Source: Omnitrophica bacterium RIFCSPLOWO2_12_FULL_50_11 (lineage in GTDB: Bacteria > Omnitrophota > Omnitrophia > Omnitrophales > Danuiimicrobiaceae). From it: a stretch of 64,000 bases of DNA. Numbering within the stretch: position 1 is the first letter of the stretch; every line of letters begins with the position of its first letter. Shown one piece after another: positions 13,908 to 37,675 of the stretch. A model generated the notes under the pieces. It was given only the letters and a program-made list of their open reading frames with translations. It did not search any database and was not told the origin of the DNA. The stretch covers positions 13,610 through 77,609 of the forward strand of contig MHFT01000024.1 of NCBI GenBank assembly GCA_001804315.1. Reading direction: 5' to 3'. The translations under genes were made by a program, and so were the position numbers.

Positions 13908-14321
13908 TTAAACCAAACGAACATGCGGAATGACATTTTTAGCCACTCGATGCAATCGGCGGTCCGAAGTCACAAAAATTTCAGAGCCCGAGAGAATCCC
14001 AGAAGCGAGCTGGACGGCATCCAAGGTTTTCAAGGCGTGTTGGCGGATGAGCTGAACGGCCTCATGTTCGAGATTTTCATTCCATACGGTCAGGAGAAAA
14101 TAGGCAAAATCCTTTTTAACCTCCACGCGAAGCCACTCAGCCTTTTCACGTGTCAACGTGTCCTCTCGCACGCACCGTTCAATGGTGGCATTCATTTCAA
14201 GCCACGTCACGGGAGAAACTACAATTTCCGCCGTTTTGGAGAGAAGCTTTTCAAAAGCCTCGCTTCCCGGTTCATCCGCATACTTTTTGAAAAGGGACGA
14301 TGTGTCAACAAATAGTCTCAC
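13908..14321 (-). CDS. vapC: PIN-domain toxin (VapC-like)
   Basis: MRLFVDTSSL..., acidic PIN residues and DAVQLASG...FVTSDRRL; 137 aa; 4-nt overlap with the upstream antitoxin gene. Confidence 0.75.
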   Translation of the reverse strand: MRLFVDTSSLFKKYADEPGSEAFEKLLSKTAEIVVSPVTWLEMNATIERCVREDTLTREKAEWLRVEVKKDFAYFLLTVWNENLEHEAVQLIRQHALKTLDAVQLASGILSGSEIFVTSDRRLHRVAKNVIPHVRLV

Positions 14322-14563
14322 CGTTCTTCGTTCCGCATCTGAGACACCGTTTGAGACAGCCCGGCACCTCTGACTTTAATCTTGGAAATTGGCCGCTTCC
14401 AGCCTGGGTGGGCTAGGTTCTCATTATGGGGAATCAAATCTGCAACTGGCGTACGCCGTTCCAGGATCACGATCCTCTCGCCCCGTTTGACCGCCTTAAT
14501 ATAACTGGAAAAACCGCGGGTCAACTGTCTAATCGTCACTTGAGTCATGTTCAAATCCTCCAA
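14318..14563 (-). CDS. Phd/YefM-family antitoxin paired with the PIN toxin
   Basis: MTQVTIRQLTRGFSSYIKAVKRGERIVILERRTPVADLIP is a typical Phd/YefM N-terminus, with tight translational coupling to vapC. Confidence 0.65.
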   Translation of the reverse strand: MEDLNMTQVTIRQLTRGFSSYIKAVKRGERIVILERRTPVADLIPHNENLAHPGWKRPISKIKVRGAGLSQTVSQMRNEER

Positions 14564-17700: not shown

Positions 17701-20700
17701 TAGGAGTAAGGCCAGCTGGGCGAGGGCAGTCCGTTTTGGCTTAATTATCCAAGTCGGTTTCTCGATCTGGTTTTTCGTCAAGCCGCGGCTTAGGATTCGA
17801 CTGGACCACTACGGGTCTGTCATGATGGTTGCTGCCGATACGGTGATTAGTTTGTTTACCCATCGTTTGTTGCTTCATTTGCTATATAGATCCGAGAGGT
17901 TATCTAAAGACGAGATTCGCGAAAAGATGAAAAACACATTTTGGCCTTCTTATGGGATGTTGGCGGGCGTGTGGGGCATTTTCAATTTAGGCATTTATGC
18001 TATTCCAAAAGATTGGGCCTTCGTTATTCCTATTATTTCATCGGTCGTGGCTTTTGTGAACAAAGTTATTTTGTCAGCTTATCTATATCGATCATCTTCC
18101 CGGACACTGATGATGAAGTTTGGGGGGACTTTCGGCTTGGTAGCTCCGATCATAAGCTTTGTTGCGATGGGTTCAGTCATCGGGCTTGACTTTTCATTTC
18201 GGCACGTGATTTTTGGGGGATTGAGTGGATGGTTAGTCGGAAGTGCGTTCGTTTACTTTGCAAAAAAATACTGGGGCTCAATCCAAACTGAAGGTGACGC
18301 GCTTCAAACGGGACCGGCATCTACAGGCAATGTCAATGATTTCCGGCCTGAGGTGCGGGGCAATGAGAAATTGAGTCGCACGCGGTGGGTCCGGCCATCT
18401 TGGATTGATTCGACCAGCTTGTTTTCACCGGCGGAAAGAAAACTCATTCGGGAACGCGGTCAATTGCTCAAGTTCGTGTACCCGCGCTTGAGCGAGAATG
18501 CGAAAAAAGTATTACTTTACCCTTCCTTCTTGCCCGTCTTTATGGGCGTCAAGCCGGCGTACCTGCGTATTACAGACCTTATTACTGGCCGCAAAGAACC
18601 GGATCCTATGATCCTTGCGAGAGAATTGAAAGATATTCCCAAGGCTTGGGATCAACTTGGGATAACGTTCAACGACATCAGAGCGATGTTAGTATTCGAT
18701 GTTTTTGATCAACTCAAGGCGCACATGAAACTTTTAAAAGACTTTGGTGTCCTGCCGCGCTATCCAAACGTCGACCTGATGAGCGAAGAGTGGAAAAGCT
18801 ATCAACCGAGCAAGTGGCAGGCGTTATCGGAAGAATTGGAATTGTTCATTGACGACTTAGACGACAATGTTGAGGTTAGTCAGAGTGCTGGGCATGTTCT
18901 TAACGGCATTGTCTTAGGTTATCCGGTGGCGGAAGTTCAGGCTCTAGGCGAATACATAACGGGCTTTTCGGTGAGTGTAACGCGGCTGTCGACAGAGTTT
19001 GAAGGCATTGAGCTCTTCGTTCGACTAGGAGAAAAGGGAGAAATTGCAGACGAAACGCATCGCTATCTCGCGCGGATGACCGATGCGCTTTATTATGCCT
19101 ATTCACTCCTACAGGAAAATGAGGACTTCGCGAGCATAGCTCAGGAACTCAACCTTCCCCCTAGAGTTCTTTCAGCCGAAGCTCCTGAGTCGATTGTCAG
19201 CCGTGGCGAACTTAGGCAAAGCGATTTTTTCAGGTCTGAGGTGCGGGGAAAAGAAAACGCTCAAGATTTACAATTGTATATTCGGCGTGCTCGCCATCCA
19301 GAGGTTCAAAGCGGAGAAACGAGTGATCAGGCGCCGGATTCTGCCGCCGTCAGCCTGTTGCCAATACCGCGAATTTCTTCTTTGAGCTCAGACCGCGTTT
19401 CTCCAAGTTCAGTCCGAGTATCACGGAGGTCCTTGGAGAGTTTTGACACGGCGTCTTCAAGGCGAGATGCTTTACCGTTGAGGACGTTGATTCGGAGTTC
19501 GATCGTATCTAGCCTTCGGCTGTTGCCGTGGACAGTTACCTCGAGCCGTTCCATCCTCGTATCGAGACCTGACTGGCCCTCAGCGAGGGTATCAAATTTC
19601 TTGTCCAATGCTTCCAGAAGTGTGCCCACTTCCGTGACTGAATATGAATCAGCCATTTTCTTTGGCTTGGTAGGATTACCTTTGCTCATTTCAAATCTCC
19701 TTGAGGATCAATTTGTGGGAACGGCAGGAATGGAAAGCAAGGTATCAGAGCGGCCACAAGATGTCAAGGTGCCTTTTGATGCCGGGCGCAAGACCGGAAT
19801 TGCGAACCCCAAAATCTTCTCCTCTCCCCTGTCGGGGGAGAGGATTTCCGCCAAAGGACGCGGCGGATCCGCCGCGCTGTATGGCGGAAAGGTGAGGGGG
19901 ACGAGTGAAAATAACTTGAACATCCACCCTCACCCAACCCTCTCCCTCCAATGGAGAGAGAGGGGAAAAGACTACAGCTACGGTCTTGTGACTTTTGATG
20001 CCGCCCGGCGTGCGGAGACCCGCGATCGAGTGCGGAATCCGGAGTTCAGGGTGCGGAGTGGACTTAAGTTCGGGAGTTCGCCCGTTCCGCACTCCGCACT
20101 CCGCATTTCCAACTCAAATCGGCGGGCCGAAGCGCGGGCAGAGAGCGATGGAGATCAACTTGTCAAACGATTCACAAGGTTAAGGGGGATGAATCTTTTG
20201 AGAGCTTTACCTGAATTAAACGGCGCGGTTCGACGGAAAGATTTGCCGGCTCGCACTTTGGAGAAGCTGAAAGAACAGCGCCGGATTAGGTATGTTCCTT
20301 ATGTACGCGGAGCGCTCAAAAGGCTCGCACGGAATTTAAGGAGCGAATTTCCAAAGGGGCGTGAGCTCATGAAAGCAGTTGCGGATGCATCAGGTGATCC
20401 TGAACTCTATGACCGTTCGGATGCCCTTCCGTTGCGAATTCTCCAGCAAATCGATCAACGAAAAGCGTGGGAGAGGGTGGCCTCTAACGACAACGTCGCA
20501 GAGCTTCTCCTCCGCGCGAAAGAAGCATTTGATCGGTATATGAGCACTGATGACGCATGGCTTTCAGAACATCTGCCTGAACTCAAGGATAAAAGGGCCG
20601 CCTACTTTTCGGCTGAATTTGCGGTTCCGCCGCTCCCGATATACACCGGCGGAATGGGGGTGCTGGCGGCTGATATCGTGGCGAGCGCGAGTGATCTGAG

Positions 20701-23700
20701 GATTCCGCTCACAGCGGTTGGACTTTTTTATCAGCTTGGCTACTTTCGGCAGCTCATCAGACCGTCTGGCGAGCAAGAGGAAGATAGAAGTTATGCCGGT
20801 ATCCGGAGAGATAAACGGACAGGACGGCCGCTTGATTTGCCGGTCGAAGATCCAAGAACAGGACATCCACTCATCCTGCAAATGAGAATGCCGACTGGAG
20901 GCCGTGTCGTCAAGGCAAAAGTCTGGAAGGCGCGGTTAGGAAAGGTCGATTTATTGCTTCTCGATACCAACTTGAAGGAGGAATGGGCAAACTGGAACAA
21001 CGCGTGGAATGAAGGTACAGACCTCTCTATCACAGAACAAGCTTATCGGGAACATTCGGGAACGCAGGAGCGCATGGAACAATATTTCGTGCTCGGCGTC
21101 GGCGGAATAAAGGCGCTAAAAGCATTAGGTCAAGAACCAGATGTCATCCATCTCAATGACGGCCATCCAGTATTTGCGGCCATTTCTGCTCTTGCCCAAG
21201 CGTTGGCGCGTGTGCCTCGCGCGATAGAAGATCCCAAGCTCCGGTTTGACGCAGCGCTTGAAGTAGTTCGAGCAAAGACGATCTTTACGACCCACACGCC
21301 GGTTCCTGCCGGAAATGAAGCGGTGCCGGAACATGTGATCCGCCCCTTCTTGGAGATACTTTTTCCTGGGGGAAAAGAAGTCGATCAATATGCGGTGGAT
21401 CGAATCCTCGAAATGGGACGGGCAGACGGCAACTTTAACATCACCAAATTTTCATTGCTGGTTTCAGGATTTCACAATGCCGTGAGCAAACTTCACGGCG
21501 AGGTAGCACGCAAGATGTGGCAAGGTCTTTACCCTGCTGTCCCGACAGAAGATGTTCCCATCAAAGCGATTGTCAATTCAGTTCACACGGGCGACGGCGA
21601 GCGGGAAGGAAAGTGGCAAGCTCCCCAAATTGCGGAACTGCTTCAAGAAACCTACCAGACTGCTGAAGTCCAGCGAGTAATGCACCTCGAACGAGACGAG
21701 ATGATGCGGTATCTTACGGATAACAAATGGCTGGACCAAAACGTTCCTGTTTCAACGCGAGAAAAGTTGTGGGCCGTCCATGTCGGTGTTACGAAGCTGC
21801 TCTTTAATGAGGCCGAGAAGCGGTTTACAAGGCAGGCCGCGCGGGGCGACGCGTCGCGGGAAGATTTGGCTTATCTGAAAAGTCTTGACCCACAGGCGCT
21901 CACGCTTGGTTATGCGAGGCGGTTTGCTGGGTATAAAAGGCCTGATCTCATTTTTCTAGATTTGGAGCGCTTAAGATCTATCGCCGCGAAGTCACAAGGG
22001 CTAGTACAAATCATATTTGCAGGAAAAGCTCATCCCAGAGATGACGTGGGCAAACGGTTAGTTGCTCGTGTAAATCAAATAGCGCGTGAGTTACGCAAGG
22101 AAAAGAAAATCAAAGTCATTTTCATCGAGGACTATGACGTAGCGCTGGCTCGATTGCTCGTTGCCGGAGTGCACGTTTGGCTTAACAATCCGATCCTGAA
22201 ACAAGAGGCGTCTGGAACAAGCGGACAGAAAGCACTTCTAAATGGGGTGCTGAATCTCACGATCCCCGATGGGTGGGCAGAGGGCATTGTAGACGGCGTC
22301 AACAGTTGGAAGTTTGGCGGAACGGACGTCGGGGACATCGATGCCAAGGATGCAGCTGCGCTTTACGACAAGTTGGAGAAGGAAGTGATTCCCACTTTTG
22401 ATAACAATCGGGAGGAATGGATCCGCATGATGATCCGGGGCATTCTTTCTATCGCGCATCATCACGGAGGCGAGCGGCTGCTTTTAGACTACGGCCGGGA
22501 ACTGTATGTGCCTGCTGTCAATTCAAGCGCGATGATCACGTCAGGCAACAATATTCTGACAAAGTTGCTTGCATACCGCGCGAAATCTAGCGTGGAAGAA
22601 GGAATGCTTTTTTATCTCCGGCTTCCACCCGAAGCCGAGGCAGAAAGGGTGTATTGGGCAAATAGAATTACGAACTGGGACTCTCAAGAAGATTTCGCGC
22701 TTGAGAAAATATCAGACGGCGTGTGGGCCATCGTGATTCCCGCAGAGAAAGTAGCTGGCGGTGATGTGGACTTTAAATTTATGGTATTTCCGGATCGAAA
22801 AGTCCACGGCGCGAGTAGGCCCATTTGGCTGCGGGGCGGATATCCTAACAGTTTGCGCAGCGGCATTTATCAGAATGGAAGCGTCAAAGTTGACATGGAC
22901 CACCCTTTGTTTCGTCGGGACGCAGCTCGAAAGCTGCTTGCTGCCATTCGCTCCGAAGCGCGGGATGATTGGACTGAGAGACTCGAAAACGTCATGAAGG
23001 AAATGTCCTACGTGCCGAAGTGGTTGAATGATCCAAAGTATTCGACACGTCCCGCTGTATCTCCCAAAGAGATCATTCTTCAGAGCGAAAAATTCGCCCG
23101 TTTCGCCGAAAGCCTCGCACCGGTTTTGACGCAAAAGCGTAGAGAAAAGTACGTCATGCGGCACGGGGTGAATGCATTGTCGCCTCTGAGATCTTTTGAT
23201 TTTCCTCCTCCCCTCCGGGAAGATTCCTACGGCGGCGCCGAAATCATCCTCAAAGAGGGATTTGACTGGAGCCGATTGACAGCCGGCGGGGTCATGGCCA
23301 ACATCGGGCCGTGGGAAGGCACCAAGATAACGGAAGCTGCCATCCTGGAATTTGATTTTGAAGGGGATGTCTTCACGAGCCTCGGCGCCGGCACTGACGT
23401 TAAGGATCAGCTGAGAAAATTTTTCGACACGAGCCTAGACGAAATCCATCTGCCCGAAGAACCACCTTTCTATCGGGGGCGGGGCGATCTTTTTAATTAT
23501 CTCCTCATCCTTTTATTACGTTTGTACGGAATCGACGGCGTGAATTTCGCTTATCCGGCCAAGGAATCCAACGAACCCAGATCTTTCGAATTTCTCGTGA
23601 CCCACCCCAAAGCCATCAGCCACATCCGGCTTGTTACCAGAAAACCCGGGCCAACGATTTCCAAGGAAAGAGAATCCGGCCCCCCCTCCGAAGTGCGTAC

Positions 23701-26700
23701 GGAGATTGTGCCGGAAGAGCTTGTCAAGGTTCGCTCACAGCTTGAGTATGAGCGAAGTGGCACTGGAGAAGTGTTGAATGTAAAGCCGGGAGGAATTCCT
23801 TCAGAATCGCGGAAACGAGGCCGGGAGTTTGCTTTTGACCTACGGCTGAATGCGGAGTCTCAAAACAGGAAAGCGGTCCAAAGAATCGCAGGCTTTCAGA
23901 AGAGGTTAGAAAAAATTGTCACTGCCGCCGAGCTTTTTATTCTTCCGAAAGATGCCTTCCACATTGCGTTAGGTGGCTTCTATCCTGGCGAAAGCTGGGA
24001 TTTGGATTCAAATGGGCCGATAGATTTACCAGAGGATGCGGTTGAGAACGCCCTAACCCTCTTCCAGCAAAAGCTCAATACCGCCTTCAAAGATTCGCCT
24101 GAACTCATCATTGCCATCATCGGCGCAAGGATGACAAATAATGGAACCGTGGTTCTTGATTTGAAAGAACATCATGGTGGAAAACTTGCCGGACTCCGTG
24201 GGCTGGCCTATTCCGCAATGGAGGAAGCGAACTGGCCGCCAGGAAAGTTTCGAATCAACCGCTCGAAGGATGGACAGGTAAGCGACAGCGGAATTGTGAC
24301 CTTGGCCCGGGTCATTCCTCACCCCGACAAAGATGAACCCTTGTCAAGCTCAGAGACGCTAATGCGAGTAGAAGGCAAAATTACCAAAATGGATCGTGAG
24401 CTGAAAAACAGTCCAATCACTCTCCGGTTCACTCAAGAAGATCAAGAAATAGCTCGGCTTGGAACGCGTGTTTTAATCGAAGAGATTGAGGGTTGGGCAT
24501 CCACAAATGATTTTTTGAAAGAGCGTGCGGATGAAATCGTCAAGCTTACTGCGAATGGTTTTGCCCACGAGACCTACGAAGCGGTCCGCCAAATAGAAGC
24601 AATGGATTGGGGAAGAAGAAAAGGGATTTATTCTCCTCAACAAGTTCAAAAAGATCTTCAAGGCGAACCTCCAGGAAGTCTATTGATGCTAAAGAGGCAA
24701 AGGCACAATCAAATACTTGCCACGCACGGAGAAAGGGTTGCACTTCTTGAGCTCGAATTGCGTCATTTGAGCGTCTTGACACTTTCACTCGCGTTAAAAG
24801 GAATCCCCATGGATGTGGCAAGGAGCAGCCATTATTACTATCTTTTACTTGAGATTGAGCGGTTCAAAAATTCCAACGGTATCGAGGGCCTTAACCCTGA
24901 GTTCATTTCTCCGGCGCAACAGATACTTGTCTTGAACGAGATAGCGAAATCTCAACTTCGTGGTGCACGGGAGCAACTTGGCAGACAAATCGCAGAGCAC
25001 TTAGACACCATTAGTTTTCGCTCGTCTGCCGAACGACTGTTACCCGAAATAGAAAAAATCATCGCGAGCTGGGAGGAACGTTATGTGAGAACAAAGCTTG
25101 AGCATGCTGTGTTGCAGGTAATTGGTCCCCTGAGACTAACTCGGGCGGCAGGAAAAAAGGTAAAAGATGAGATATCCCGTAGAAAAGTCGAGATCGTCGC
25201 ACACGTGGTGCGACAACTCACCCCAGACGTATTAAGTGGCCGTCGCATAACGACAAATAAGATTCGCGACGCCCTTAGAAGTAGCGGTCTCAGTTTTGAC
25301 CGTGTGAACCGGCTCAATCGTCCGGTGCGGTCCGGTATCACGAAGAAAGTCGACGAAATAGTGTTCAACATTGAAGAAAGCACGCACCGCTTGAAATTTC
25401 GTTCTGCGTTCCAAAACCCCCGCTCGGAAGCAAGGTGGCTCATAATGGCTGCGAAGATCGTTCTTATGGTCGCGGTTTTCGGTGCTCTGGGCTATTGGGC
25501 GCTCCGCGACACCAAAGATGATTGGGCCAAGGAGTTTAGTCAAATGACGGAACTTATTAAGGAGACCACCTCGACAGATGTTTTAATTGACATCGTGCGA
25601 GATACTCAAAATAACAGCATCCACCGCTGGTATGCGGTAAGACGATTAGTCGAAGCAGCCACAGTTAATGAATCTCTGAGAAAGGAAGTGGTGCCGGTGC
25701 TCATGGAAGAAATTACCCGCTATCTCAAAAAGGAGCTGGATCCACAGACGATGGTTGCGTCATGGGGGGTCGAGGTTGAGGCGATAGACGGTCTTGCCAA
25801 GTTCAAGGCGACGCGAGCAATCAACTTATTGAGACAAGTTTACACGGACGGCTCGGTCGATCAAACGGTGCGTGAAGCGGCGAGGGGAGCGGTAGAACAA
25901 TTGGAAGAGACACGATCCGGCCGCTCCAGAGTACAAGAAGGTCAATTGGACAGAGAAGAAAAATTGAAAACGTCTGGCCCGAGGAGCTCAAGATCCGAAA
26001 TTCGTAGTGAAATCGTCACTCCAAAGACGAAACTTGAAGAGAGGGGTACCCTTATTTTCCGCCGTATTCGGTATGAAATAGAGCAGATCATCCACGTGGC
26101 TGGAGATGATTTCATCCTGTTAAGAGCGAAAAAGAAGTACGCAGGGCAAAAGAGACAAAGGAGGGTTGACCGTCCCATTCATATTTCCAGAAGTAAGAGC
26201 GAGGTTACGAGCGGCCCTCTTTTACGAGTTTCCCTCAATGATGGAAACTGGAGTTACATTTCACCCAAGCGTGCTGAGGTGCGATCGCCGCAACAGAAGA
26301 AAAAAATAAAATACCCTGCCATTCATATACCCCTTGGAACGTATTTAAGGGTTTATTCTGGAATTTTTCTTCCGGCGATCTTTTTCATACTTAATGTATT
26401 AACCGTCGTAAAACTCGGGGCCCAGCTGGCAGGGGCGAAGATTTTGAATGGCCTCCCATTGGACGCTGTGATCACCGCATACGGGATTATTTTAGTCCCA
26501 GCCATCATCCATTTCGCAATGGAAAAATCTGTTTGGCTTCGGAAACGACAGCGTGCGCGAGAAGATCGGAGAAAAGCCGCTGGTATGCGCGGTGAGTCAC
26601 GCTCCCAGTCTGTTGAAGGCCGTGAACGTGCGAATGGAGATATTGGAGAACCAAAACAATCTGCAGTTCGAGACTCGGCGGACCGTGCGGAACTGCGAGC

Positions 26701-29700
26701 AGAATGGAAAGGTAAGAGTATTTTCGAAATTGGATTCGAAGCCAGTCTAATTCCTCGGGAGTTTAATTTGTTAGTGGATGCCGCGGTTAAGGGATTTAGC
26801 AATCTCAACGAGGCCGAACGAAATCAAGTGAAAAAGGTTCTTCGGAAGATTTTCGAAAAATTGGGCTTGCTCGAAACGGAAAAGCAAGAGGAGCGGCGCC
26901 GATTCCTGAGTCAAATCAGCGCGCTCATGATAAAGCTCAAAGCGCGGGGAAAGTTAGACAAATTAAAGTCAACGTTTCAAAAGAAATACTTGGACGAGAC
27001 ATCGTTCAAATTGGAGCGTGAGGTCAAAGTGTCAGGGCTTCAAACCGGTGATCAGGTACAGGAAGCAGCGGCGGAAATATCCGATGAAGAGCCTCTGGGC
27101 GCTTTGAGAAAATTGCTTGCTAAAAAACCCCGTGGGATTGAGGAAGCATATGCCTTGTCTATTTCACGAGGCGCATCTTTAGAAGAGGTTCGGAGGACAC
27201 TCAAAGAAGCTGGCTATGAGATGACGCAATGGAGACGCGACGGGTTGCTCGGCCTCTTTCGATTTAAACGAAATGTGTGGTTGAAAGTGCAAGAGCCCCG
27301 CCGGGCCGAGGTGCGGCACGAGCTGGTGCAGAGTGTGGAATTCGGAGTGCGAAGCAGACGCGAACGAGACGACTCGATCATTCCGTATTCCGCACTCTCC
27401 ATTCCGCACTCGGAAACACGGGCTGAGATGCGGGGACAATTGGAAGAAGATTGGAAAATAGCACGTTCTGCTGTGTGGTTTTTTTTGAGGAGAGGGGTTT
27501 ATTTTAAGCAGGACATCGAAGATGCTTTTCAGGATATCCATCTTGCGTTTGCGGAGGAGAGGCAGAAGGGAAAACCCTTATCAGAACTGGAGCTGAGAAA
27601 GATTGCTCTGGCCGCCCTTTCAAAACATGTGAGGGATTATCATAAGTACAAGCGTGTGGTTAGAGGGTTTCAAGCTGCATATAGATCGCTCGTCACAAAG
27701 CGCCGCGGCCCACGTCCTATGCTTGATGATGTCGATCTCTTGATACCTGAGGTAGGGGAAGAGACATTTGGGGACAGGCTTAGATCTCATTTCAGAAGGC
27801 GAGGGTGGTCCCAGCGACGAGGAGCGCGTGAATTAGGATTTTCGTACGGCTCCATTAAACCGTGGATATCAGGTAAGATTCCAAGCCCATTCTTTGTGAA
27901 ACGGCTTGCGACCGCACTGGACACGACGGTAAGTGAGTTGATGATAGGAATACCTAGGGAAGAGTTGCTCGCCATCAGGATTGAAGATGAAGAAAGTGGC
28001 GAATACAGAAAAATCTTGGGGTTGAAGGTCAAAGTTTTGAGATATGAAAAAGGATGGACAAAAAGCAGGCTTGCTCGCGAGGTGGGTATCAAGGATAACA
28101 CCATTATCAGACTGGAGGCAGGCGAACCTACGTTTCCCTATCGGTACATTGGAAAACTTGCCGAAACGCTGGGTACGACGATAGGCGATCTTATTGCAGG
28201 AATGCCTGACGAAAAAATAATGGCTATTCGTGTTTTTGACGAGAAAAGCGAGGAGCATCGTGAACTCTTTGGGCTCAAATTAAGAGTCCTCAGATATAGG
28301 CGAAGATTATCTCAGACCGGTTTCCAGGGCCAGAGTAGCACCTCCGCATGGGAAAGTGGGAAATGGTTCCCCTATCCCAGAAGCATGAAAATCATTGCGC
28401 GCAACTTAAAAACAACTGTGAGCGAACTTTTAGCCGGCATACCTGAAGAGAAGTTAATGAGCATGCGGGTCCGAGACGAGAAAAGCCGGGAAGCAAAACA
28501 AATTCTTGGATTAAAGATCAAAATTTTTAGATACAAACGGGGTTGGACCTTAACCGAACTTGCTCAAGAAATGCACGTGCATGTTGATACGGCTTCAGAT
28601 TGGGAAGCCGGACTGCACTTCCCTGCGATACGGCATTTCAAACAGCTAGCAGAACGACTGAATTCTACGGTGAGCCATCTTCTGGTGGGTTTGCCCGCAG
28701 AGGAGATAAAAACAAGATTAAAAAATGGCAATGACCCGGACTATGCCGACCTATTCAATCTCATGATCCGGGTTGTAAGATACGAGAACGGTTGGTCATC
28801 GGGCAAGCTCGGCGCTGAAGTTGGGATTCCTCGGGTAACCATCGATGGATGGTCATGGAGTCGAGCAGTTCCCGCCCCTAACAATTGGAAAAAATTGACT
28901 ACTGGAAAAGGGCACGTTCTTTTCGGTGACTACCTTCCTCCGTCACGGCCGAAACCCACAGAGCTTGATGAGACAGAACGTAAAGTTCATGAACTGTATC
29001 AACAACTAGGTCGATACAGTTCTGTCGCCAGAGCAATGGGATGGCAAGGAGCAGCAGGCGGCGTGAGGGCCCGGCACATATACCTGCGGTCTCTTCGGAA
29101 ATTGGGGGCTCAGAGCCGCGCTGAGGTGCGGAACGAACTGGTGCGGAATGCGGAATTCGGAGTGCGGAGTGGACGTCAACTCGAAGACTTGATCATTCCG
29201 CATTCCGCCCTCCCCATTCTGTACTCGGAACCACGGCCTGAACTGCGGATGGGGCTGGAAGAGATCGCGATCTATGAGGAAGACGTGGATCTCGAAGCGT
29301 ATCAGCGCGTGATGCGTTCTGCCGAGGTCCGTTTCTTAACGCGTGAGGAGGAAAAGATCCTTTTTCGTGCCCTTCATGCTCGAAATCTAAAAGGAGAAGA
29401 GCGCAGGACTCTCTTTGACTTTCTAGTCTTGAAATATCTTCCTAGGATTAAACGCGTGATCCGTAAACTCGTACGCGGTGAGGGGCGAGACAAGGACAAT
29501 ATGTATCAGGACGGTTCTTTGGGGTTAATGGAAGCAGTCTGTCGTTTTGATTACCGTCTCGGGACGAGGTTTGGTACATTTGCCGACTGGTGGATATGGG
29601 GCAAAATTCTAATCGGTTTGAATGACTTAGCCACTGGAAAGTTACCGTCTCAGGAGCGGGAACTCGTCCCCGCAATCTTGAGCTCTCAACAGGAATTAAC

Positions 29701-32700
29701 ACAGCTTTTCAAGCGTGAACCCACCATGGAGGAATTGGCCAAAGCGCTAGGGGAAGAGGAAAAAACGGTGATCCGCATCCTTTCCTTCTTCTCACGGGCA
29801 AAGTCCTTAGATGCCCCAGCAGGGAACGGTGAATTAAACCGCTATCAATTCCGCTCGGATCCAAAAGCGGAAACTCCGGAGGCGATCGCGGTTCGTGAGG
29901 AAGAACACCGCGAGATAGTCCCAGAGATTTCAAGAAGGCTAGCCCTTCTTTCCTCTTACCAGCAGCTCGTCATCAAACTGCGGTTTGGAATTGGCACGCA
30001 AAAAGAGGGCGGTTATACACTCGACGAGATTGGAACAATGCTGGGGGTCACAAGAGAGAACATCCGTCAGATCGAAGATCGTGCAATCAAAAATATGCGC
30101 AGCAACACTATTTCAGACGCCAAGACTCGTCCCGTATCCACTGAACATGGTGATGTTTACCTTGTGGAAGTCGTCGGCATAAAGCCGGATCATCCTGTTT
30201 TTGAGGACATGCGGCTCAAGCCACTTATCGAGATAAAAGAGCTTTACGAAAGGGGCTTTTTTGCCAATTTCATTCCGGCACAAAACTTGACGATGGGCAG
30301 GGTCAGAAATGTTAAGCCTCGTGTCGGCTACCGGAGACGCGTAGCGGCAACGGCCCGAGCAGCCGCTCACCGTGCTGAGGCGCGCAGTGGAAGCGTGAGG
30401 GAGTATGCGACGTGGGATCACTTCCATAGCTTGATTCATGTCCTCGCGATAGATAGCGAGGAAAAGAATCGGCTGGAAGCGTATAAGCGATTGAGAGAGC
30501 TAGCATTGTTTCAACCGTTCCACTTTGGCCTTGCTTTGGTGCGGCATGTCGGAGGTGAAATAGCTTCTTATGCTAAATCCATTTTGCTGGAGGTTGCGTG
30601 GGAAAACCCAGAGATCATGACTGGACCCATTGTGAGCTCACTTGAAGATCCGAGTCGGAATCCGCATGCTGAAGAACTTCTCGGCCAGTGGATTGACCTC
30701 ATCATCAAAAAGAAAGATCGAAACAAACTCAGTATTGTTGCCCGGCCTCTGATCGGCATCTTAGCTCTTGAGATAGCCCGCCCTGCTGCCGAAAGATTGA
30801 TTCAAAAAATTGCTCTTTTTGATCTCGGTGTAATTGTGAATCGATTCATGGGGGCACTCAAAGATCCCGCGAGGCGGGCGATCGTCGGGCACCTCCTTGT
30901 AGTCATTAGCCGTTATTCTGCTGGCGCAGCAAAGTTCGTCACCGAAACTGTCATTGAAAATCTTTATGACAATGAAATCGCCGAATACCTTATAGAAGTA
31001 CTTCTTGAGATTTCCAAGGATGCGGGCGAAAAGACGGTAAAACATATTTTGTGGTTATTAATGGATGTTTTGCATTTTGAGGATTACCTGAAGCGGGTTC
31101 GTTTTGTTCCGTTCAAGGAACGGCTAAGAGAAAATAAGGGAGATTTCCGTCGAAACGCAGCCGCGGTTTTATCGAGAATGCTGGTGACATATCCGGTCGA
31201 AACAGTGCACATTGTAGTCGGCCATGCTTTGAATCATGACGTCCGGCAGTACGCCGACGAAATCCTCGCTGAAATCGAGGATAAACAACCCCAGATTCTT
31301 ACTGATTCCTATGTGGCAGCTCAGGGCCGAATGAGTCCAAATGAATTTGTGGAAAGCGAGTTGATTCGTCTCGCTGCATCACATCGAGGGCCTATCCTCA
31401 ACTCGCTCATCAAATCGCTTAAGAGACAATCAAAAGCTCCGGCCTTAGTTTCGCTTCTGATAAAGATGGCGCGGTCTAACTCTGAGCTTTCAGGTTTCAT
31501 TCAAGAGCGCCTCAAGTCTGCGATGTCTGAGGTGCCGACGCATCGGAACCTCGATCGCTTCGGTCAACAAATTCTTGCCCAAATCCAGTCCCGCAATGAA
31601 GTGCGATTGGGATTAAATTTGGCCAAGGAGAGAAAAGTACTGCTCTCGGGAAATGCCAGCCGTGCGGAGGTTATTCAAAATGATGAAAACGGGCACAGCC
31701 CGATATTGAGGAATGACGATCGGACGGCTGACGCCAGGCTTGATGTAAACAAGGTGGTCGCCAGTTTGACGCACACGCCGAAAACCGGCCAATTCGAAGA
31801 CTCGACAAAGGTTTTGATACGGAATCGGAGTGATGCGGCTCATGGAGCAGGAGACGATTTAGAAAGTGACTTCGCTATGCTCGGTAGCAATAAGAGGAGG
31901 AGAAGTCCATTCGGTTCCAGCCGGATCTCGGGCAATGAAACCTTCTTCTTGAAGAATGTCCTTGAGCGTTCCCATTCTGGAACTTTCCTCAAGGAACAGC
32001 CGAACCGCTTCCATAAGCCTGCGCCGCGCATCGTCCACCGTATCTCCGCAGCTGGCAACGGACAATTCTGGGCAGACACTGACAAACGTCGGCCCCTCTC
32101 TAAAAATCAAGGAAGTGAATTCAATCTTTCTCATGGCATTCAAACTATAACACAGAACCGGGATGCCGTAAAGCAGCCCTCTTACCGCTCTGCAGTGCGT
32201 GAAAAATTCAGGGGAGAGGCGAGAGAGGAGAGGGAAGAGAAAAAGCGCTTACCTCTTACCGCTTCTCTCTCGCCTCTCACCACTCACCTCTCCCCTGATT
32301 CTTCCCGCCCCGCGGCACGCAAACGAGTGCGAAGCGGACATGAACTCGAAGACTCGATCATTCCGCATTCCAGACTTCCCAATCCGCACTCGGAAACACC
32401 GGCTGACGCGCGGGATCTCGTAGTTGCGCATGACGAATTGCCAGTGACGAAAGGTAGAAGACCTTGGCAGTACGAACGCGCGGATCTAAGGCACCGAGCG
32501 CGCTCTAGAGGTGTGAGTGCTTTTCGCGGCGGCGGCCCTGCCAATCGAGAAAGACAATTCCGAGAATTATTACAAGCAGGATCACAGCAAGAAACACAAC
32601 ATTCGCTGTTGCTCCATCCATTTTTGTTTCCTCTCGTCAGGATTGATCCAGAGAATGAAGGCAAAAGCAACAAGATAAATTATAACCCCGGCCACCAGAA

Positions 32701-35700
32701 GAAACAAGACAGGTCCGACTTGTTGGGCGCATCCGACTTCATACAGTTGTCATCGCGAGGCCAGCATCCCAAGAATGGGCTGAAGCAATACGATGCCTCC
32801 GTCATTACGAGGAAGCGTAGGGGCAATGACGAAGTAATCTCGGATGCGAGATTACTTCGTCATCCCTTGGGGTTGCTTCCTCGCAATGACGGTCAGGATG
32901 CAATTGCTTCGTCAACGCCTGGTCCGCTGCCTCGCGATAACGTTGGCATTGCTGCATCGAGCGGGATACGCGCCGCGGTGCAGAGTGGACAGGAACTGGA
33001 AGACTTGATCATTCCGCATTCCGCACTCCCCATTCCGCACTTGGAAACACGGCCTGAGGTGCGGAGCGGGGACAAATCACGAGGGGATGCGAGCGCTCCT
33101 CCTGACCGTGTCAAACAATGGGAAGAGAATATCGGTGCCGTGAAAAGGATGTTGAGCAAGTTTTTTCAGGAAGGCAATGACCTAAATTATGCCTTGCTTT
33201 TGTTTGGAAACATCCTCGTGAACGATCCCGTTAGAATCGATTACATGGAGAAATTGATGAATGCTTTGAAGAAACAAAAGGGGCCTCGTAGAGACAAAAA
33301 CGCAAGACACGGCGTAGAGCTTACGCCTGACGATCTTAGAGATTTGCTCGATTGGGTAATCGGAGACGTCGCCTATTTAAGCTCTCCGCCTAATAGGAAG
33401 GACGACGGACCTGTTATGTGGATGTGGGTTCCATACAGAGACCTACCCGAAGAACTCATAACCGAAATTGTGAAATATCGAACGCCTAAAAAGAATTTTG
33501 ATGATGCGGCTGACGCATGGAGAGCATATCAGGCGCAGGGTGATAAGAAGCTAATCGGATTTAAGTCATTCTATGATAAGCACTTTAAAAAAAGAGGGGC
33601 GATGGCGTCTGGCGATCAGGCTTTTGATTCGTATTCGTTTCATTTTTTACCTACGAGAAAGCATGATGATTTGAAACTAGGGATTGACACTGACTGGGCC
33701 GGCAGAGGATTGGGCAGAGGATTGGTTGCGTTCAGGGACGTACCTCGAGGTCGAAAACTTGTTGTAAATCGGCTCCGGCAATCTGAACAGGTTTATGGAA
33801 TGTCTCAACATTTGTTTTACATTGAATTAGAGCACGTCAAAAATCGGCTTATTGTTCACACCCACCAACACGGCGGTAGTCGGACGAGTCAATTGAGGAC
33901 TTCCGATCGTGAGTTGTATGATTACTTGAAACATGTACCGGATAAAGCCTTCGCTTTGTTAATAGACCGACTGGATGAGGTACTTGCAGCTTTAGGATGG
34001 TCGGCAGCCGATCAAATCCAGGATTTTGAGATTGTCTCAGCCAGCAAGGTCGCTTATGAATGGTCCACGGTCTCGGCCTCAACGGTTATGACAGCTTATA
34101 TGGATTTTCCACAGCGCCTTGGATTTCATATGGTAGAACGTAAGCCCAATGAGATCCGGAATGCGCCAGGCGACCAAGCCATGTGGAGAGAAAGCGTGTG
34201 GTACTGGAGCCGGCCGCTTGCGGATATGAAGAAACCTCCGAAAGTTCAGATCGAGACGCCGTCTTCTTTCCGTCCGGAAGTGAGAATCCTGGAGACGCGG
34301 GCTGAGGTGCGGGAAACAAAAGTAAGAAGCACGAAGCTGGAAGCAGGAGCGCAAAAGTCTCTCGCTTCAGGCCTCGCGTTTCACGCCGGCGGCAAAGCCG
34401 CCTCCCGCTCTGAAATGCGGATAAATCCGAGGAGCACTGAGGAATTGCGCGAACAGTTGATGACTCTTGTAAGGGAGATCGTCATTCTGCTTGATCTTCT
34501 CACGGTAGATCCCCGTCGGGAGAACCGGAAGGAACTTGAAACCGAGATTACGGAGCTGAGAAGGCAGCTCAGTGAACAAAAAGAGTTTGTGAACGAAGAT
34601 CAACATCAAATCTTTGACAAGCTTGTGGGAGAAGTTAAATCGCTCATTGATTTAGTATCGGCTTCCAAGCTGCCTCTTTCTACTCAATTGATACGAGAAC
34701 ATACTCAGCGTATTTACAGTAACATCCAAGAGCTGGAATTTAAGCCTACGGGGGAACAAAAAGATGCAATAAGTGCGGAAACAGAACGCTTCGAGCTCGC
34801 GAAGTTGATTAGAGCTAAGGATGTCGAGGGTATTGCTGACATGCTTTCGAGAAGCGACGAGGTGCCAATAAAGGTAGATGCGATCAGGGCACTGGGTCTA
34901 TTGAAGGCCAGTCAATATGCAGATTTGATCGTTCCATACTTAACCTTTTTCACACCACCCTTCGGCGAGGGTGTGCGGCTGACTGCAATTACTGCATTAA
35001 GAAATTTAAATGCAAAACAATATCTAACTGAGATTGCGAAGAAATTCACAGATCCCACACTAAGCGTTCGCAGTAGGGCAGCCGGAGTGATTGGGGCATT
35101 CGGGGATCCAACATACATCCCCCAACTGAAGGAACTATTGAATGACAAATCCGCCGCGGTGCGGCTTGCAGCGGCAAAAGCTTTGCAGAAATTCGGAGTG
35201 GACATTCCTGAAGAATACCGCTCCGAAGCGCGGAGCAATGATGATGTCTTTATGAGGATCGCAGCTTCTTTGCCAGAGGAGTGGCGGGAAAAAATTCAAG
35301 CAGTGCAGACAAAACCAGCTAACAGGGATGTTTTCCCCTCGTGGATACAAGCGCTGAATGAAGCGGAAGCGACGCGCCTACACTCCATTCTAACGGATCG
35401 CGTGCCAGTAGATGTAATTGAGTCCTTTTTCCTGAACAGCCCGCACTTTCTTGCAAGCGATCCCGATCAGCGTCATCAAGTGGCAGTTTCGATTGCAGAG
35501 ACGCTAGAGGATGTACGTCGGCTTTTAAGATCTTGGATTGAAGAGCTGGATCGCGACCCGCATGCGCGACGTCCTGCAGCGATCCCTGCGCGCCAGATGA
35601 CCACCCCTGCTGAGACAAGAGGTGTCCGGCCGCAAGAAGAACGAGAAGAGTGGGTATCAGAGGAGGAAGCTGCCAGACGCGCGCGCTTCATTGAGTGGGC

Positions 35701-37675
35701 TCGAGATGAAATGGGCATAGAGGCGACCAATTATGACGAGCTTGTCCGTGCGATGACGGAACGTTTCAGCTATGTTGTTCACGTGAATGCAGCTAGCATT
35801 GCGCGTACGCTTCCTCCACGCACGAGTTGGAACGACTTTGAGGATTTGGAGATCGCGGGCGTTTTGGGTCTGATCGATGCACTTGGCAAATACGATCCTG
35901 CTCGAGGCGTTCAGTTCGACTCGTATGCAAAGCATAGAGTAAGGGGAGCTATCTTGGATGAATTGAGAAAAATAGATCCTGAAAAGAGAGAAGTGAGGGA
36001 GCTTGCAAACGCTCTTCAAGAGGAGGGACGAACTCGTTCCACATCAGAAGAAGTGGTGGGGTCCTATGATGTCACACGCGCTGCCGTGTTAAGGGCTCTG
36101 CAAGTTGCTCGCGGCGGAGACATATCACTAGATAAAAAATTGTTTGAGACGGATACTGGAAAGAGCGTCACGATAAAGGATAGGCTTCTAAGCAACAGTC
36201 CGACTGGAGATTTTGTAGCAGAGCAGCGCGACTTAATCGAATATGTGATGCGGCCGTTGAGCCCCCGGGAGAAAGCGATATTGATTTTATATTACCACGG
36301 GAATTTGCCGATGAAGCAGGTCGGAGAAATTTTGGGTGTTAGCGAATCACGAATCTCTCAGATATTGAAAGATCTTCCTAAGCGGATAAAAGAACGAATG
36401 CATGAGTTTTTTGAGAGAGGAACTCTTATGCGGCTAGACACATTCGCGGCAAGAAGTCGATATGCGAGGCTAGCTACCGGCCTTCGTCGCAGGGACGTTA
36501 CGCAACAGCTCTACAGGAACGTCGAGAAAGGCTTGATGAGGCCGAGAGAGGAAACGTTCGTAAAATTAGCAGATGCTTATGGCGTTAGCATACAGTGGCT
36601 GAAGACCGGCCACAACATTCCTCCCTTTTTGAGTCCGGAGCATTTGGAAGTTGGTGCCAAAGCAATTGTGGCGATTGAAGAAGAAAGAATAAGAATGGCG
36701 CTTCCGATCGGCATCTTGGCGCACGAGGCAAAGGTATCTCGTCGCGCCTACCTATTTTACGTAGCGGGTAAAGTGATTCCGACCTCTGACGTCCTAAGCC
36801 GCCTTAGGAGTGCTCTTGAGACAGCAAAACCTGGCGGCAAGTATCCGACTCGAGAATCTGTCTTGGAGGGACTAGCAGCACGTGAGGCAAAGAAGTGGCC
36901 AAGTCATGTTAGGGCGCTCCAGATTGGTGAACATAAAGATGCGGCACTTCTGTATGCGGCCAGAAAATTTGGAATTGAACTACCTCGGCCGCCGAGAACT
37001 GGCGAACATCCGAAGGCAGAAAAAAGCCGCTCCAAAGACTCCAAGAAACCTCGTTCTGAAACGAGGGTCATTCCCACTTTCTCCAGCTTGCCGGAAGCTG
37101 AGCCACAATCGGCAGTCGAAACCGAAAATCGTTTGATCGTGACGCTTGGGGAACTTCGAATAAGCGGCGAGCTGCGGGCGAAATTGAAAGAAGCAATTCA
37201 GGTGAATCAAGCCAACCCAACGTTTATCCTGGTGATTGTCGATACGGAATTTAGACACGAGCTTCTAGCTGAGCGAGAGCTTTTTGGGCTTTTTGGGAGG
37301 GATTTCTTTATTCGTTATCCCGTGGAGCTTCACGGACGGGAGAGTCTTAAAATTTCGACCGAAATGTCGCCGTGGGTGGTACTCAATCGCGCGATTGGTG
37401 CGGCGCGTAAAGAAGTCGGTCTTAATGGTTCTTTCTTTTCACCCCAAGTGATTGCGTCGGGGAGCCACGATGTTCTCTCTCGTCTCGGCCGGCGTGATAC
37501 GCCACTCCTTGTAGCCGAACCGCTCCTATTCGATTTGGCGCGCCGCCTATTCGACCTTAAAGATGCTCAGGCGTGGTTCCGCCAGGCAGCTGGCCCCGAG
37601 GGAATTCTCCATCCGTGGGCGGAACACCTGCGTACGTTAATGCTGACTCGACAAGCGCAGGTCGCCGCTGCATAA
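14798..37675 (+). CDS. Giant mosaic ORF (7625 aa, 22.9 kb, stop-free). Order of parts: signal peptide, ChaN/TIKI-like domain, TM segments, GT35 alpha-glucan phosphorylase, 5x HTH_XRE, sigma-70 module, ARM/HEAT-like helical regions, FliA-like sigma module, HTH_XRE
   Basis: A single frame is open for 22,878 nt with many recognisable domains in that frame (listed as separate features); GTG start with GGAGG and a consensus promoter. It also contains in-frame palindromic repeats and nested antisense genes (see findings). Whether it is translated as one polypeptide is unknown. Confidence 0.75.
   Translation: [7625 protein letters not shown]
14990..16140 (+). other. N-terminal ChaN/TIKI/TraB-like domain of the giant ORF (paralogous to the 752..3859 protein)
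   Basis: [38 protein letters not shown] ... [31 protein letters not shown], preceded by a signal-like [15 protein letters not shown]. Confidence 0.4.
16211..16324. repeat. Palindromic family-A repeat (GTCATCCTGAGG ... GAAGGATC ... CCTCAGGATGAC) inserted in-frame in the giant ORF
   Basis: Same family as intergenic copies at 7975-8110, 43025-43100, 47908-48017, 50560-50935, 62118-62215 and 62922-63012. Confidence 0.7.
17017..17301 (-). CDS. Small coiled-coil protein gene nested antisense in the giant ORF (copy 1 of a duplicated module)
   Basis: On the minus strand, TTGACA-17-TACAGT then AAGGAGATTTGAA-ATG; MSKGNPTKPKKRADSYTVTEVGTLIEDL... followed by heptad repeats (LSAVEERLSAVEDRLFFVENRLSGVES). 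Confidence 0.5.
   Translation of the reverse strand: MSKGNPTKPKKRADSYTVTEVGTLIEDLRGQFRAVVEGVGPLPNRFSAVEERLSAVEDRLFFVENRLSGVESAVRVALPGLSKRVACLESKIGI
17500..18280 (+). other. Polytopic transmembrane region of the giant ORF (about 8 predicted helices); an additional helix pair lies at 16500-16690
   Basis: Hydrophobic runs [111 protein letters not shown]. Confidence 0.5.
19327..19689 (-). CDS. Paralogous small coiled-coil protein gene nested antisense in the giant ORF (copy 2)
   Basis: Same conserved promoter/RBS/N-terminus (MSKGNPTKPKKMADSYSVTEVGTLLEAL...) on a duplicated approximately 168-nt segment (19625..19792 versus 17225..17392); diverged coiled-coil body of 120 aa. Confidence 0.5.
   Translation of the reverse strand: MSKGNPTKPKKMADSYSVTEVGTLLEALDKKFDTLAEGQSGLDTRMERLEVTVHGNSRRLDTIELRINVLNGKASRLEDAVSKLSKDLRDTRTELGETRSELKEEIRGIGNRLTAAESGA
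19815..19970. repeat. Family-D repeat (TTTCCGCCAAA..GGCGGATCCGCC..TATGGCGGAA with flanking G/C-rich palindromes) in-frame in the giant ORF
   Basis: A homologous intergenic copy lies at 39150-39370. Confidence 0.6.
20190..22560 (+). other. glgP: Complete alpha-glucan (glycogen/maltodextrin) phosphorylase module, GT35, embedded in the giant ORF
   Basis: [51 protein letters not shown] (GT35 N-terminal hallmark); [37 protein letters not shown]; PLP-lysine motif [14 protein letters not shown] with the Lys retained. An internal AAGGGGG-ATG sits at about 20195 at the module start. Confidence 0.8.
27775..28890 (+). other. Tandem array of five HTH_XRE (Cro/C1-type) DNA-binding domains inside the giant ORF
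   Basis: Five roughly 80-aa repeats of the pattern (L/M)[20 protein letters not shown]...LGLKxKxxRYxxGWTxxxLAxExGxxxxTxxxWExG...KLAExLxTTVSxLLxG. Confidence 0.65.
29112..29252. repeat. Family-C composite palindromic element (CTGAGGTGCGG direct repeats flanking a tgcggaatgcggaattcgg / ccgcattccgc hairpin) in-frame in the giant ORF
   Basis: Near-identical copies at 20000-20140, 27296-27440, 32336-32425 (half) and 32975-33070, each translated as ...[44 protein letters not shown].... Confidence 0.7.
29330..30110 (+). other. Complete sigma-70 family sigma factor module (regions 1.2, 2, 3 and 4) embedded in the giant ORF
   Basis: [17 protein letters not shown]..., region 2 [33 protein letters not shown] (compare [33 protein letters not shown]), region 3 [21 protein letters not shown], region 4 [30 protein letters not shown]. 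Confidence 0.75.
31613..31843 (-). CDS. hicA: HicA-family mRNA interferase toxin nested antisense inside the giant ORF
   Basis: YQNLCRVFELAGFRRVRQTGDHLVYIKPGVSRPIVIPQYRAVPVFIILNNLRTAGISREQYFSLL is a YcfA/HicA dsRBD-like toxin with the catalytic His in the G(D/S)H motif; 76 aa. Confidence 0.7.
   Translation of the reverse strand: MSRITPIPYQNLCRVFELAGFRRVRQTGDHLVYIKPGVSRPIVIPQYRAVPVFIILNNLRTAGISREQYFSLLGQI
31859..32143 (-). CDS. hicB: HicB-family antitoxin (UPF0150 fold) nested antisense inside the giant ORF
   Basis: FTSLIFREGPTFVSVCPELSVASCGDTVDDARRRLMEAVRLFLEE matches the HicB N-terminal domain signature (partial RNase-H-like fold, GxTxEEA motif region). Lies 15 nt upstream of hicA on the same strand. 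Confidence 0.65.
   Translation of the reverse strand: MNAMRKIEFTSLIFREGPTFVSVCPELSVASCGDTVDDARRRLMEAVRLFLEESSRMGTLKDILQEEGFIARDPAGTEWTSPPLIATEHSEVTF
32747..32892. repeat. Palindromic family-B repeat (GTCAT(T/C)GCGAGG ... GAAGCAATCTCG/CGAGATTGCTTC ... CCTCGCAATGAC) in-frame in the giant ORF
   Basis: Same family at 6545-6640, 61378-61570 and 62625-62772. Translated copies give ...ARQQSKRCRSNLEVVRLLRR... / ...[13 protein letters not shown]... peptides. Confidence 0.7.
34840..35210 (+). other. HEAT/PBS-lyase-type repeats in the giant ORF
   Basis: Repeated approximately 30-aa units [23 protein letters not shown] / [75 protein letters not shown]. Confidence 0.55.
35700..36410 (+). other. Complete FliA/sigma-28-like sigma factor module embedded in the giant ORF, followed at about 36440-36620 by another HTH_XRE domain
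   Basis: [45 protein letters not shown] (compare FliA LLQAGGIGLLNAVERYDALQGTAFTTYAVQRIRGAMLDELRSRD) and region 4 [48 protein letters not shown]; then [44 protein letters not shown]. Confidence 0.75.

Follow-up and report, generated by a model that had tools for sequence, protein, structure and literature searches.

A 64,000-nucleotide stretch of the genome of Omnitrophica bacterium RIFCSPLOWO2_12_FULL_50_11 (assembly GCA_001804315.1, contig MHFT01000024.1, positions 13,610 to 77,609), called the window in what follows, contains a giant open reading frame (ORF) and, on the opposite strand and wholly inside it, two small genes, hicB and hicA, which encode an antitoxin and a toxin of the HicBA type. 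The explanation that we favor, and that we consider probable, is that an autonomous hicBA operon has resided for a long time, antisense, in a spacer between two modules of a real, polyprotein-like giant gene, that this gene is translated through the operon, and that the shared DNA is constrained in both readings.

The geometry of the cassette can be stated exactly. Both genes share the codon register of the giant ORF, i.e., (low coordinate - 14798) mod 3 is 0 for hicA and hicB alike, and neither gene contains TTA, CTA or TCA, the three codons that would be read as stops in the giant frame. From the promoter to the hicA stop, five of the cassette's six frames contain 2-15 stops each, and only the antisense frame that is aligned in register with the giant ORF contains 0. 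An earlier note on this DNA, made from the letters alone, had given the coordinates, the phase, the 15-nt gap between the genes and the absence of TTA, CTA and TCA, and all of these were exact on recomputation. The same note had drawn attention to the matching triplet boundaries, which are indeed present, but because no orientation and phase other than those observed would leave the giant frame free of stops, the alignment follows from the nesting and is no separate coincidence. Two strain variants, L010 and L011, differ from the window only at contig ends that enter repeats, including the apparent stop of L011, and have no single-nucleotide polymorphism inside hicBA.

The downstream gene, hicA, is a genuine and intact member of its family, and here the profile search proposed in the earlier note gave a clear answer: the product matches the Pfam family HicA_toxin (PF07927) with 30.7 bits against a cut-off of 27 (E = 3.3e-7, profile positions 3-58 of 58). 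Its 254 homologues, the best at 86% identity, are nearly all 75-77 aa long; many are named HicA by NCBI or JGI, and nearly all of those listed carry PF07927. All invariant family residues are kept, including H30, which is invariant in 40 family members, and G28-D29-H30 aligns to the G-S-H of the HicA structure 9svk, an instance of the G-x-H motif whose histidine we take, as established family knowledge, to be the catalytic residue. The AlphaFold2 (AF2) model, with a predicted local distance difference test (pLDDT) score of 96, has the element order H-E-E-E-H-H, and its top six Foldseek matches (1whz, 6g26_E, 6g26_F, 5yrz_B, 4p78_C and 4c26) each reach a probability of 1.00, with target-normalised template modelling (TM) scores of 0.66-0.87 and root-mean-square deviations (rmsd) of 1.2-2.6 Å. 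Five of these six are named HicA toxins; the remaining one, 1whz, which ranks first, shares their fold and is recorded as a hypothetical protein of Thermus. HicA is an mRNA-cleaving enzyme in the relatives that have been studied, and by analogy the protein encoded here would be toxic and would be neutralised by HicB.

Regarding the upstream gene, the predicted structure and the homologues confirm it as a HicB antitoxin with the HicB N-terminal fold. The 94-aa protein of the earlier note corresponds to the longest ORF, opened by a TTG at 32143, whereas the start of all 38 aligned homologues corresponds to the ATG at 32134, which makes 91 aa the most likely length. There are 53 homologues at 47-79% identity, several of them named HicB by NCBI or JGI, and 19 of 19 invariant family residues are kept. 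Because the sequence falls below the Pfam cut-off (the families considered were PF15919 and PF05534), its assignment rests on structure and homologues: the anticipated HMM identification of HicB was not obtained from the sequence, but fold and relatives support the name. A scan against NCBIfam gave no match, a PHROG family labelled 'HicB-like' was matched at E = 0.008, and the HicB family profile searched against the PDB found TTHA1756 (2yzt) at E = 0.0026. In the AF2 model (pLDDT 94), the N-terminal ~50 aa superpose on 2yzt (rmsd 1.8 Å over 50 columns, probability 1.00) and also fit the N-domain of Burkholderia pseudomallei HicB (6g1c_B; rmsd 1.7 Å, probability 0.99). The best Foldseek matches are 2yzt, 6g1c_B and the putative antitoxin 3k6q, with modest E-values of 0.05-0.28, and residues 55-91 are modelled as one short helix and a short strand.

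Together, the two genes form what the comparisons confirm as an autonomous type II toxin-antitoxin operon with its own predicted promoter, and the pair itself is ordinary. The consensus scan found a putative sigma-70-type promoter whose -10 box lies 9 nt before the hicB ATG, a distance from which the hicB mRNA is probably leaderless or near-leaderless. When the cassette is aligned with ten close homologues, homology starts at the promoter-like element and stops exactly at the hicA stop codon, and the layout TTGAC, 17 nt, TATA[CG]T, ~8-10 nt, ATG is kept in most of them. The gap between hicB and hicA is 9-21 nt, with a common frame, in all scored close homologues (at least 70% identity), and of the 81 homologous loci scored, 65 have a hicA gene after hicB. 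Close homologues mostly stand on their own in normal intergenic positions, for instance in the Omnitrophica metagenome-assembled genome GCA_016206925.1, and the flanking genes are unrelated among L013, L014, L020 and other homologous loci. The promoter and terminator scan found no terminator-like site after hicA, so that the transcript would run antisense into the upstream module. Insertion by a transposon was considered and rejected: the cassette in the window has neither terminal inverted repeats nor a target-site duplication.

The two readings of the shared DNA differ in what selection appears to preserve. Comparison of the window cassette with the ten close homologues in both frames, as the earlier note had suggested, gave nonsynonymous divergence (dN) of 0.15-0.29 with saturated synonymous divergence (dS) in the hicBA frame, and dN/dS of 0.065-0.13 where it could be computed; the register-aligned antisense frame, i.e., the giant frame, gave dN/dS of 0.97-1.98 and an amino-acid identity of 24-41%. 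The two nested copies, compared with each other, are no better conserved in the giant frame than other pairs. These values show purifying selection on hicBA and none on the giant-frame peptide (dN/dS ~1-2), so that hicBA is the protein reading under selection and the giant-frame peptide over the cassette an unconserved one. The description of this peptide as low-complexity did not hold, its entropy being 3.79 bits against a mean of 3.72 for the giant ORF; it is better described as unconserved filler without homologues.

The absence of giant-frame stops is a different matter. The GC content at third codon positions (GC3) is 0.53 in the window cassette, close to the mean of its giant-ORF host (0.55), and 0.68-0.80 in the free-standing close relatives, which carry 0-1 TTA, CTA or TCA codons, rare anyway at their GC3. 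Among 42 free-standing hicBA cassettes with GC3 below 0.60, none is free of the three codons (range 1-12, median 4). The window copy freely uses the leucine codons that were counted as A/T-ending (CTT, TTG) and never uses the forbidden three; given its amino-acid sequence, the probability of this is 0.0045 with the codon usage of the giant ORF and 0.016 with that of the flanking genes. We considered whether the absence was inherited from a GC-rich subfamily, which fits the free-standing copies with GC3 of 0.68-0.80 and fails for the two nested, low-GC3 copies. Because the forbidden codons are lacking at low GC3 only in nested copies, the giant frame is kept open by selection through the cassette rather than merely tolerated there. 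Of the suggestion that the giant frame is a tolerated read-through, therefore, one half stands, namely that hicBA is the selected reading, and the other does not, in view of the 0 of 42 controls. In addition, the shift of GC3 to the composition of the host, with intact proteins, points to a long residence of the nested cassette.

An open antisense frame around the cassette was found at one other locus among the 65 loci at which both genes could be scored. This locus, L059 (OBEQ012662971.1, 49% GC), has a giant ORF of at least 7,029 nt and at least 2,343 aa, which occupies locus positions 1238-8266 on the minus strand and runs off the edge of the locus. DNA similarity to the window is confined to the cassette (window 31618-32128, 68.6% identity), and for this reason the giant ORF of L059 is considered unrelated to that of the window. 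It has its own recurring peptide, [AGS][AGS]-R-L-[AV], which occurs 11 times where 0.14 copies would be expected and in one copy uses a wholly different set of codons; the ORF also shows weak methyltransferase-like similarity. The L059 cassette has a GC3 of 0.45 and likewise no TTA, CTA or TCA (P = 0.0048 with the codon usage of its own giant ORF), so that the overlap shows the marks of selection in both frames: dN/dS of at most 0.13 on the minus strand, and stop avoidance with P ~0.005 in each of the two nested copies on the plus strand.

At both loci, moreover, the cassette stands between copies of the motif that recurs in its host ORF. In L059, G-A-R-L-A stands on one side of the cassette and A-A-R-L-A on the other; in the window, the brackets are the R-x-E-x-R-type motifs listed in Table 1. 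In the window and in L059 alike, exactly two codons (6 nt) separate the end of the upstream motif from the complement of the hicA stop. The nested arrangement has arisen at least twice, the second occurrence being independent. That such nesting is unusual, as the earlier note had it, agrees with the single other case among 65 scorable loci and with our literature searches, which turned up no precedent for a type II toxin-antitoxin operon lying antisense within another gene.

That the giant ORF is a single gene is indicated by several of its properties. It has 0 internal stops in a window of 50.4% GC, compared with 400 and 408 in the other two plus frames over the same span. Its Pfam families, namely an alpha-glucan phosphorylase, four XRE helix-turn-helix (HTH) domains, two sigma-70 factors and HEAT repeats, are all in one frame; it also holds membrane segments, and both sigma-70 factors are complete. 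Several otherwise independent, complete proteins are therefore joined in one ORF, as expected of a polyprotein. Housekeeping proteins encoded in the flanks match NCBI records of Omnitrophica bacterium RIFCSPLOWO2_12_FULL_50_11 exactly. The same contig with the 7,625-aa gene called is found in independent assemblies, and an apparent split of the gene in scaffold_928 (ANAN16-1, L009) is only a 10-N gap. The record of that scaffold also lists a 2,040-aa product from a gene starting at 19453, with a match to PF00145 (DNA_methylase); this product covers window ~19892-26010, where the window has neither a stop near 26,010 nor a Pfam methylase domain. As the part compared is 100% identical to the window, scaffold_928 may differ, or have another gap, further downstream.

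The giant ORF is punctuated by the peptide R-[APSTN]-E-x-R, present in 25 copies against a mean of 1.6 and a maximum of 6 in shuffled sequences, and in only two copies in the 9,773 residues of neighbouring ordinary genes. Its codons vary synonymously while its amino acids hold, and the motif is thus conserved as protein, not as DNA; on the same grounds an RNA or DNA element was ruled out. The natural C-termini of eight free-standing long-form phosphorylases project to giant residues 2713-2717 and a motif begins at 2718, so that, by this alignment, the motif after the phosphorylase module stands at the position of an ordinary gene's stop codon. Some modules open with a Met just past a motif. 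We regard the R-x-E-x-R copies as candidate end-of-module or cleavage marks of a bacterial polyprotein. The copies are often paired, 108-117 nt apart, on either side of a hairpin. At its C-terminus (37640-37675) the giant ORF is alanine-rich (...TRQAQVAAA*), and that of L059 ends ...LRMALQAA*; both tails are reminiscent of the ssrA degradation tag (...LAA), which may be a coincidence.

The spacer in which the cassette lies (Table 1) has weak coding potential. A search of 5.8 billion proteins with the giant-frame translation of 30098-34600 found no homologue, not even the sequence itself, so that the flanking modules are without comparative data, and Pfam gave no credible match for any ORF or the giant frame on either strand of 32144-33159. 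The 560 nt between the last two copies of the D1 repeat (32415-32975) have no recognisable coding potential, Pfam match or homologue on either strand, and are still stop-free in the giant frame. The five D1 copies, which resemble repetitive extragenic palindromic (REP) elements, share one codon phase and form hairpins of -44 to -64 kcal/mol; their core, common to four of the five, is found only inside the giant ORF within the window and always on the plus strand. In the giant frame, each copy reads ...IIPHSALPIPHSE-T-R-x-E-x-R or a variant of it. Next to the hicB -35 box, on its upstream side, there is a 41-nt purine-rich/pyrimidine-rich inverted repeat (32203-32243 / 32263-32303, 78% complementary), which the giant frame reads as EKFRGEAREEREEKK...SLSPLTTHLSP.

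Table 1. Positions in the window of the hicBA cassette, the giant ORF and associated elements
Feature	Position	Strand	Remarks
Giant ORF	14798-37675	plus	7,625 aa; runs antisense through the hicBA cassette
hicA	31613-31843	minus	76 aa; span includes the stop codon (TAA), which is TTA (Leu) for the giant frame
hicB-hicA spacer	31844-31858	minus	15 nt, a multiple of 3, giving both genes one common frame
hicB	31859-32134	minus	91 aa (most likely) from the ATG at 32134; stop at 31859-31861
Predicted hicBA promoter	32144-32172	minus	-35 TTTACG (32172-32167), 17-nt spacer, TG-extended -10 TATAGT (32149-32144); consensus scan
Linker motif R-N-E-V-R	31592-31606	plus	closes the upstream HEAT-like module; ends 6 nt before the complement of the hicA stop
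Motif variants R-S-A-V-R and R-G-E-A-R	32186-32200 and 32210-32224	plus	other side of the cassette, 14 nt beyond the -35 box
Compound non-module spacer of the giant ORF	31607-33049	plus	481 codons, no stop; holds the antisense cassette, inverted repeat 32203-32303, D1 copies 32325-32414 and 32976-33065, and 560 nt without recognisable coding
D1 repeat copies	20049-20138, 27345-27434, 29160-29249, 32325-32414, 32976-33065	plus	REP-like, ~90-134 nt
Small coiled-coil protein gene 1	17017-17301	minus	nested antisense in the giant ORF; upstream region to ~17400
Small coiled-coil protein gene 2	19327-19689	minus	120 aa, paralogue of gene 1; upstream region to ~19790

In the explanation that we favor, the HicBA module would sit in an inter-module spacer in the only placement that keeps the giant frame open. 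Selection on the minus strand would keep the amino acids of HicB and HicA, and selection on the plus strand would keep only the absence of stops, so that the ~190-residue giant-frame reading of the cassette would be a freely drifting filler between two motif copies of the R-x-E-x-R type. From the avoidance of stops, we infer that ribosomes translate the giant frame through the cassette; the filler may then be cut out at the flanking motifs or may simply be harmless. Head-on transcription may also couple the expression of hicBA to that of the giant gene.

A further-reaching version of this explanation, which we offer tentatively, is that the giant ORF is a polyprotein in which an end-of-module peptide (R-x-E-x-R here, A-A-R-L-A in L059) replaces stop codons. 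Its spacers would be safe harbours for antisense genes, i.e., hicBA and the two coiled-coil genes of Table 1, whose giant-frame readings would be translated and then discarded, and the head-on, leaderless hicBA might tie toxin activation or the stability of the locus to transcription of the giant gene.

Several points weigh against the favored explanation. The evidence is computational throughout and is drawn from sequence. The dN/dS values span cassettes of different genomes and thus describe selection at the level of the family, not selection since the nesting, while the low-GC3 controls come mostly from a more distant subfamily (44-56% identity to HicB). HicB reaches only 15.7 bits with the Pfam family HicB_lk_antitox (cut-off 27; E = 0.017), and neither the Pfam scan nor the model shows a C-terminal DNA-binding domain, whether ribbon-helix-helix (RHH) or HTH, in this protein; such a domain is not universal, since there is no room for it in a minimal HicB like TTHA1756 (67 aa). 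The Pfam scan of the giant ORF found no protease domain to cut the motifs. The strong D1 hairpins look intergenic and are awkward to reconcile with continuous translation. Finally, a scan of the GTDB species representatives with the phosphorylase module found nothing above 38% identity, leaving no close relative for a comparison of synteny.

Some of these points are what one would expect if the giant ORF were not one translated gene at all, and separate genes with their intergenic regions merely happened to be stop-free in one frame, hicBA being an ordinary intergenic operon. The spacers do look intergenic, with their REP-like hairpins, their weak coding potential, their lack of homologues and their three promoter-bearing antisense genes, and some modules start with a Met right after a motif. 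Were the modules translated separately, however, nothing would select against stops in the spacers, and zero stops in 7,625 codons at 50% GC, where each other frame has ~400, is beyond chance. All Pfam domains in one frame, a recurring motif conserved as protein and not as DNA, and stop-avoiding codons in hicBA only where it is nested point the same way, and we consider this alternative quite improbable. The converse possibility, that hicBA is the decaying relic of an old insertion, that only the giant frame matters and that the small ORFs are open by inertia, seems very improbable to us. It would account for a HicB under the Pfam cut-off and for the fact that neither product is called by gene callers in any assembly (an exact look-up found neither HicA nor HicB recorded as a called gene in the assembly collection searched). 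A relic would not be expected to have both ORFs at full length, every invariant residue including the presumed catalytic histidine of HicA, an intact predicted promoter and an equally intact second nested copy in L059; moreover, GC3 has moved from the ~0.7-0.8 of the relatives to 0.53 while the proteins stayed 70-86% identical, a turnover that implies purifying selection during the residence.

The reading of hicA and hicB as spurious 'shadow' ORFs, generated by the codon bias of the giant frame, draws on the facts that the register-aligned antisense frame scores second in most windows of the coding-potential map and that, of the 59 open stretches of 75 codons or more on the minus strand within the giant ORF, 25 share its register; against hundreds of full-length homologues, most of them free-standing, confident models with the HicA and HicB folds, and dN/dS of at most 0.13, we regard it as refuted. 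A last alternative is compatible with the favored explanation and holds that hicBA has been co-opted, whether to slow or to sense transcription of the giant gene from the antisense side or to stabilise the locus in the manner of an addiction module, and that it owes its retention there to this role. The hicBA promoter faces the direction in which the giant gene is transcribed, the antisense transcript would run into the upstream module for want of a terminator-like site, a VapBC-like pair lies at the giant gene's 5' end, and nested cassettes occur in two giant ORFs unrelated to each other, where the distance from the end of the host motif to the hicA stop is exactly 6 nt in both. None of this is specific to co-option, though: two other, unrelated antisense genes occupy similar spacers, the spacers may simply be the only places where insertions survive, and most close homologues are free-standing. 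Co-option seems unlikely to us.

Unlike hicBA, the two other antisense genes, which encode small coiled-coil proteins, do not share the codon register of the giant ORF. Both lie between motif copies, and upstream of both there is an AAGGAG Shine-Dalgarno sequence together with a -10 box and, across a 17-nt spacer, a perfect TTGACA -35 box. The 120-aa product of gene 2 is a member of a genuine family, most of whose proteins are small (16 representatives at E <= 1e-10), and it is where the giant frame reads antisense across this gene, at 19367-19520, that the giant peptide has its lowest entropy. On the minus strand just upstream of the giant ORF start, a PIN-domain protein (137 aa, ~13908-14321) and a 76-aa partner (14318-14548) apparently form a toxin-antitoxin pair of the VapBC type. 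Rfam and tRNA scans of the window were empty, and PADLOC assigned no defence system.

Compared with known HicAB or HicBA systems, such as those of B. pseudomallei (6g26), Streptococcus pneumoniae (HicBA, 5yrz), Yersinia pestis (HicA3B3, 4p78) and Thermus thermophilus (TTHA1913, 1whz; TTHA1756, 2yzt), the cassette is similar in being a two-gene operon with the HicA fold, the G-x-H histidine, the HicB N-terminal fold, its own promoter and scattered, unrelated contexts. It differs in its minimal HicB (91 aa) without a recognisable RHH or HTH domain, as in TTHA1756, in having the antitoxin gene first with an apparently leaderless mRNA and, in both the window and L059, in lying as a whole operon inside the reading frame of another gene. 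There is also some likeness to the toxin-antitoxin cassettes of chromosomal integron arrays, as self-promoted modules among mostly co-oriented units with hairpin repeats between them, where such cassettes possibly stabilise the array. The cassettes of integron arrays have their own stop codons, with attC sites between them, and need the integrase IntI, whereas here one frame runs through everything and the boundary element is conserved as a peptide, not as DNA. Among the called genes that are listed over ~14 kb on the upstream and ~11 kb on the downstream side, none has an integrase domain, and with the continuous stop-free frame and a boundary element that is variable in DNA, the integron reading was rejected.

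Long antisense overlapping genes have been described in Pseudomonas aeruginosa (PMC8850804) and Escherichia coli O157:H7 (PMC9927249) and reviewed (PMC7457138), and according to the abstracts the embedded ORF is evolutionarily novel and lies inside an annotated gene. The present case resembles them in an ORF of hundreds of nucleotides, fully embedded antisense, with evidence of selection, but with the roles reversed, because here the embedded genes are old and widespread and are under strong selection at the protein level, while the host frame over them is the filler. What is embedded here is, again in contrast to those accounts, a complete two-gene operon with its promoter, and the embedding has arisen at least twice. 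The giant genes of Omnitrophota described by West-Roberts et al. (2023, bioRxiv 10.1101/2023.11.21.568195) encode repetitive proteins of the beta-helix or adhesion type, implicated in cell-wall degradation, for which cleavage into several products was proposed, with no cleavage points known. Our giant ORF comes from the same phylum and is likewise a very long single ORF; unlike those genes, it joins unrelated modules of a cytoplasmic type (phosphorylase, sigma factors, HTH regulators), its boundaries are marked by a defined motif and its spacers hold antisense genes; no such features were described there. What is new is the stable, doubly constrained nesting of a toxin-antitoxin pair in a polyprotein-like giant gene.

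Long coding overlaps on opposite strands in bacteria are still debated, and the accepted examples are young, poorly conserved embedded ORFs. The embedded unit here is an entire operon of an old, easily recognised family, and the dual constraint is visible in a simple comparative signature, namely that the forbidden codons are missing only in nested copies, in two independent lineages. The locus therefore offers a clean natural test case for two reading frames that share the same DNA. It also argues, if indirectly, that a giant ORF of Omnitrophota has to remain open even over stretches that are clearly no coding material of its own, and its motifs are candidates for the module boundaries that were called unknown in the published work on giant genes. 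Finally, gene callers drop nested genes of this kind, and the content of toxin-antitoxin and other small genes inside giant ORFs may consequently be under-counted.

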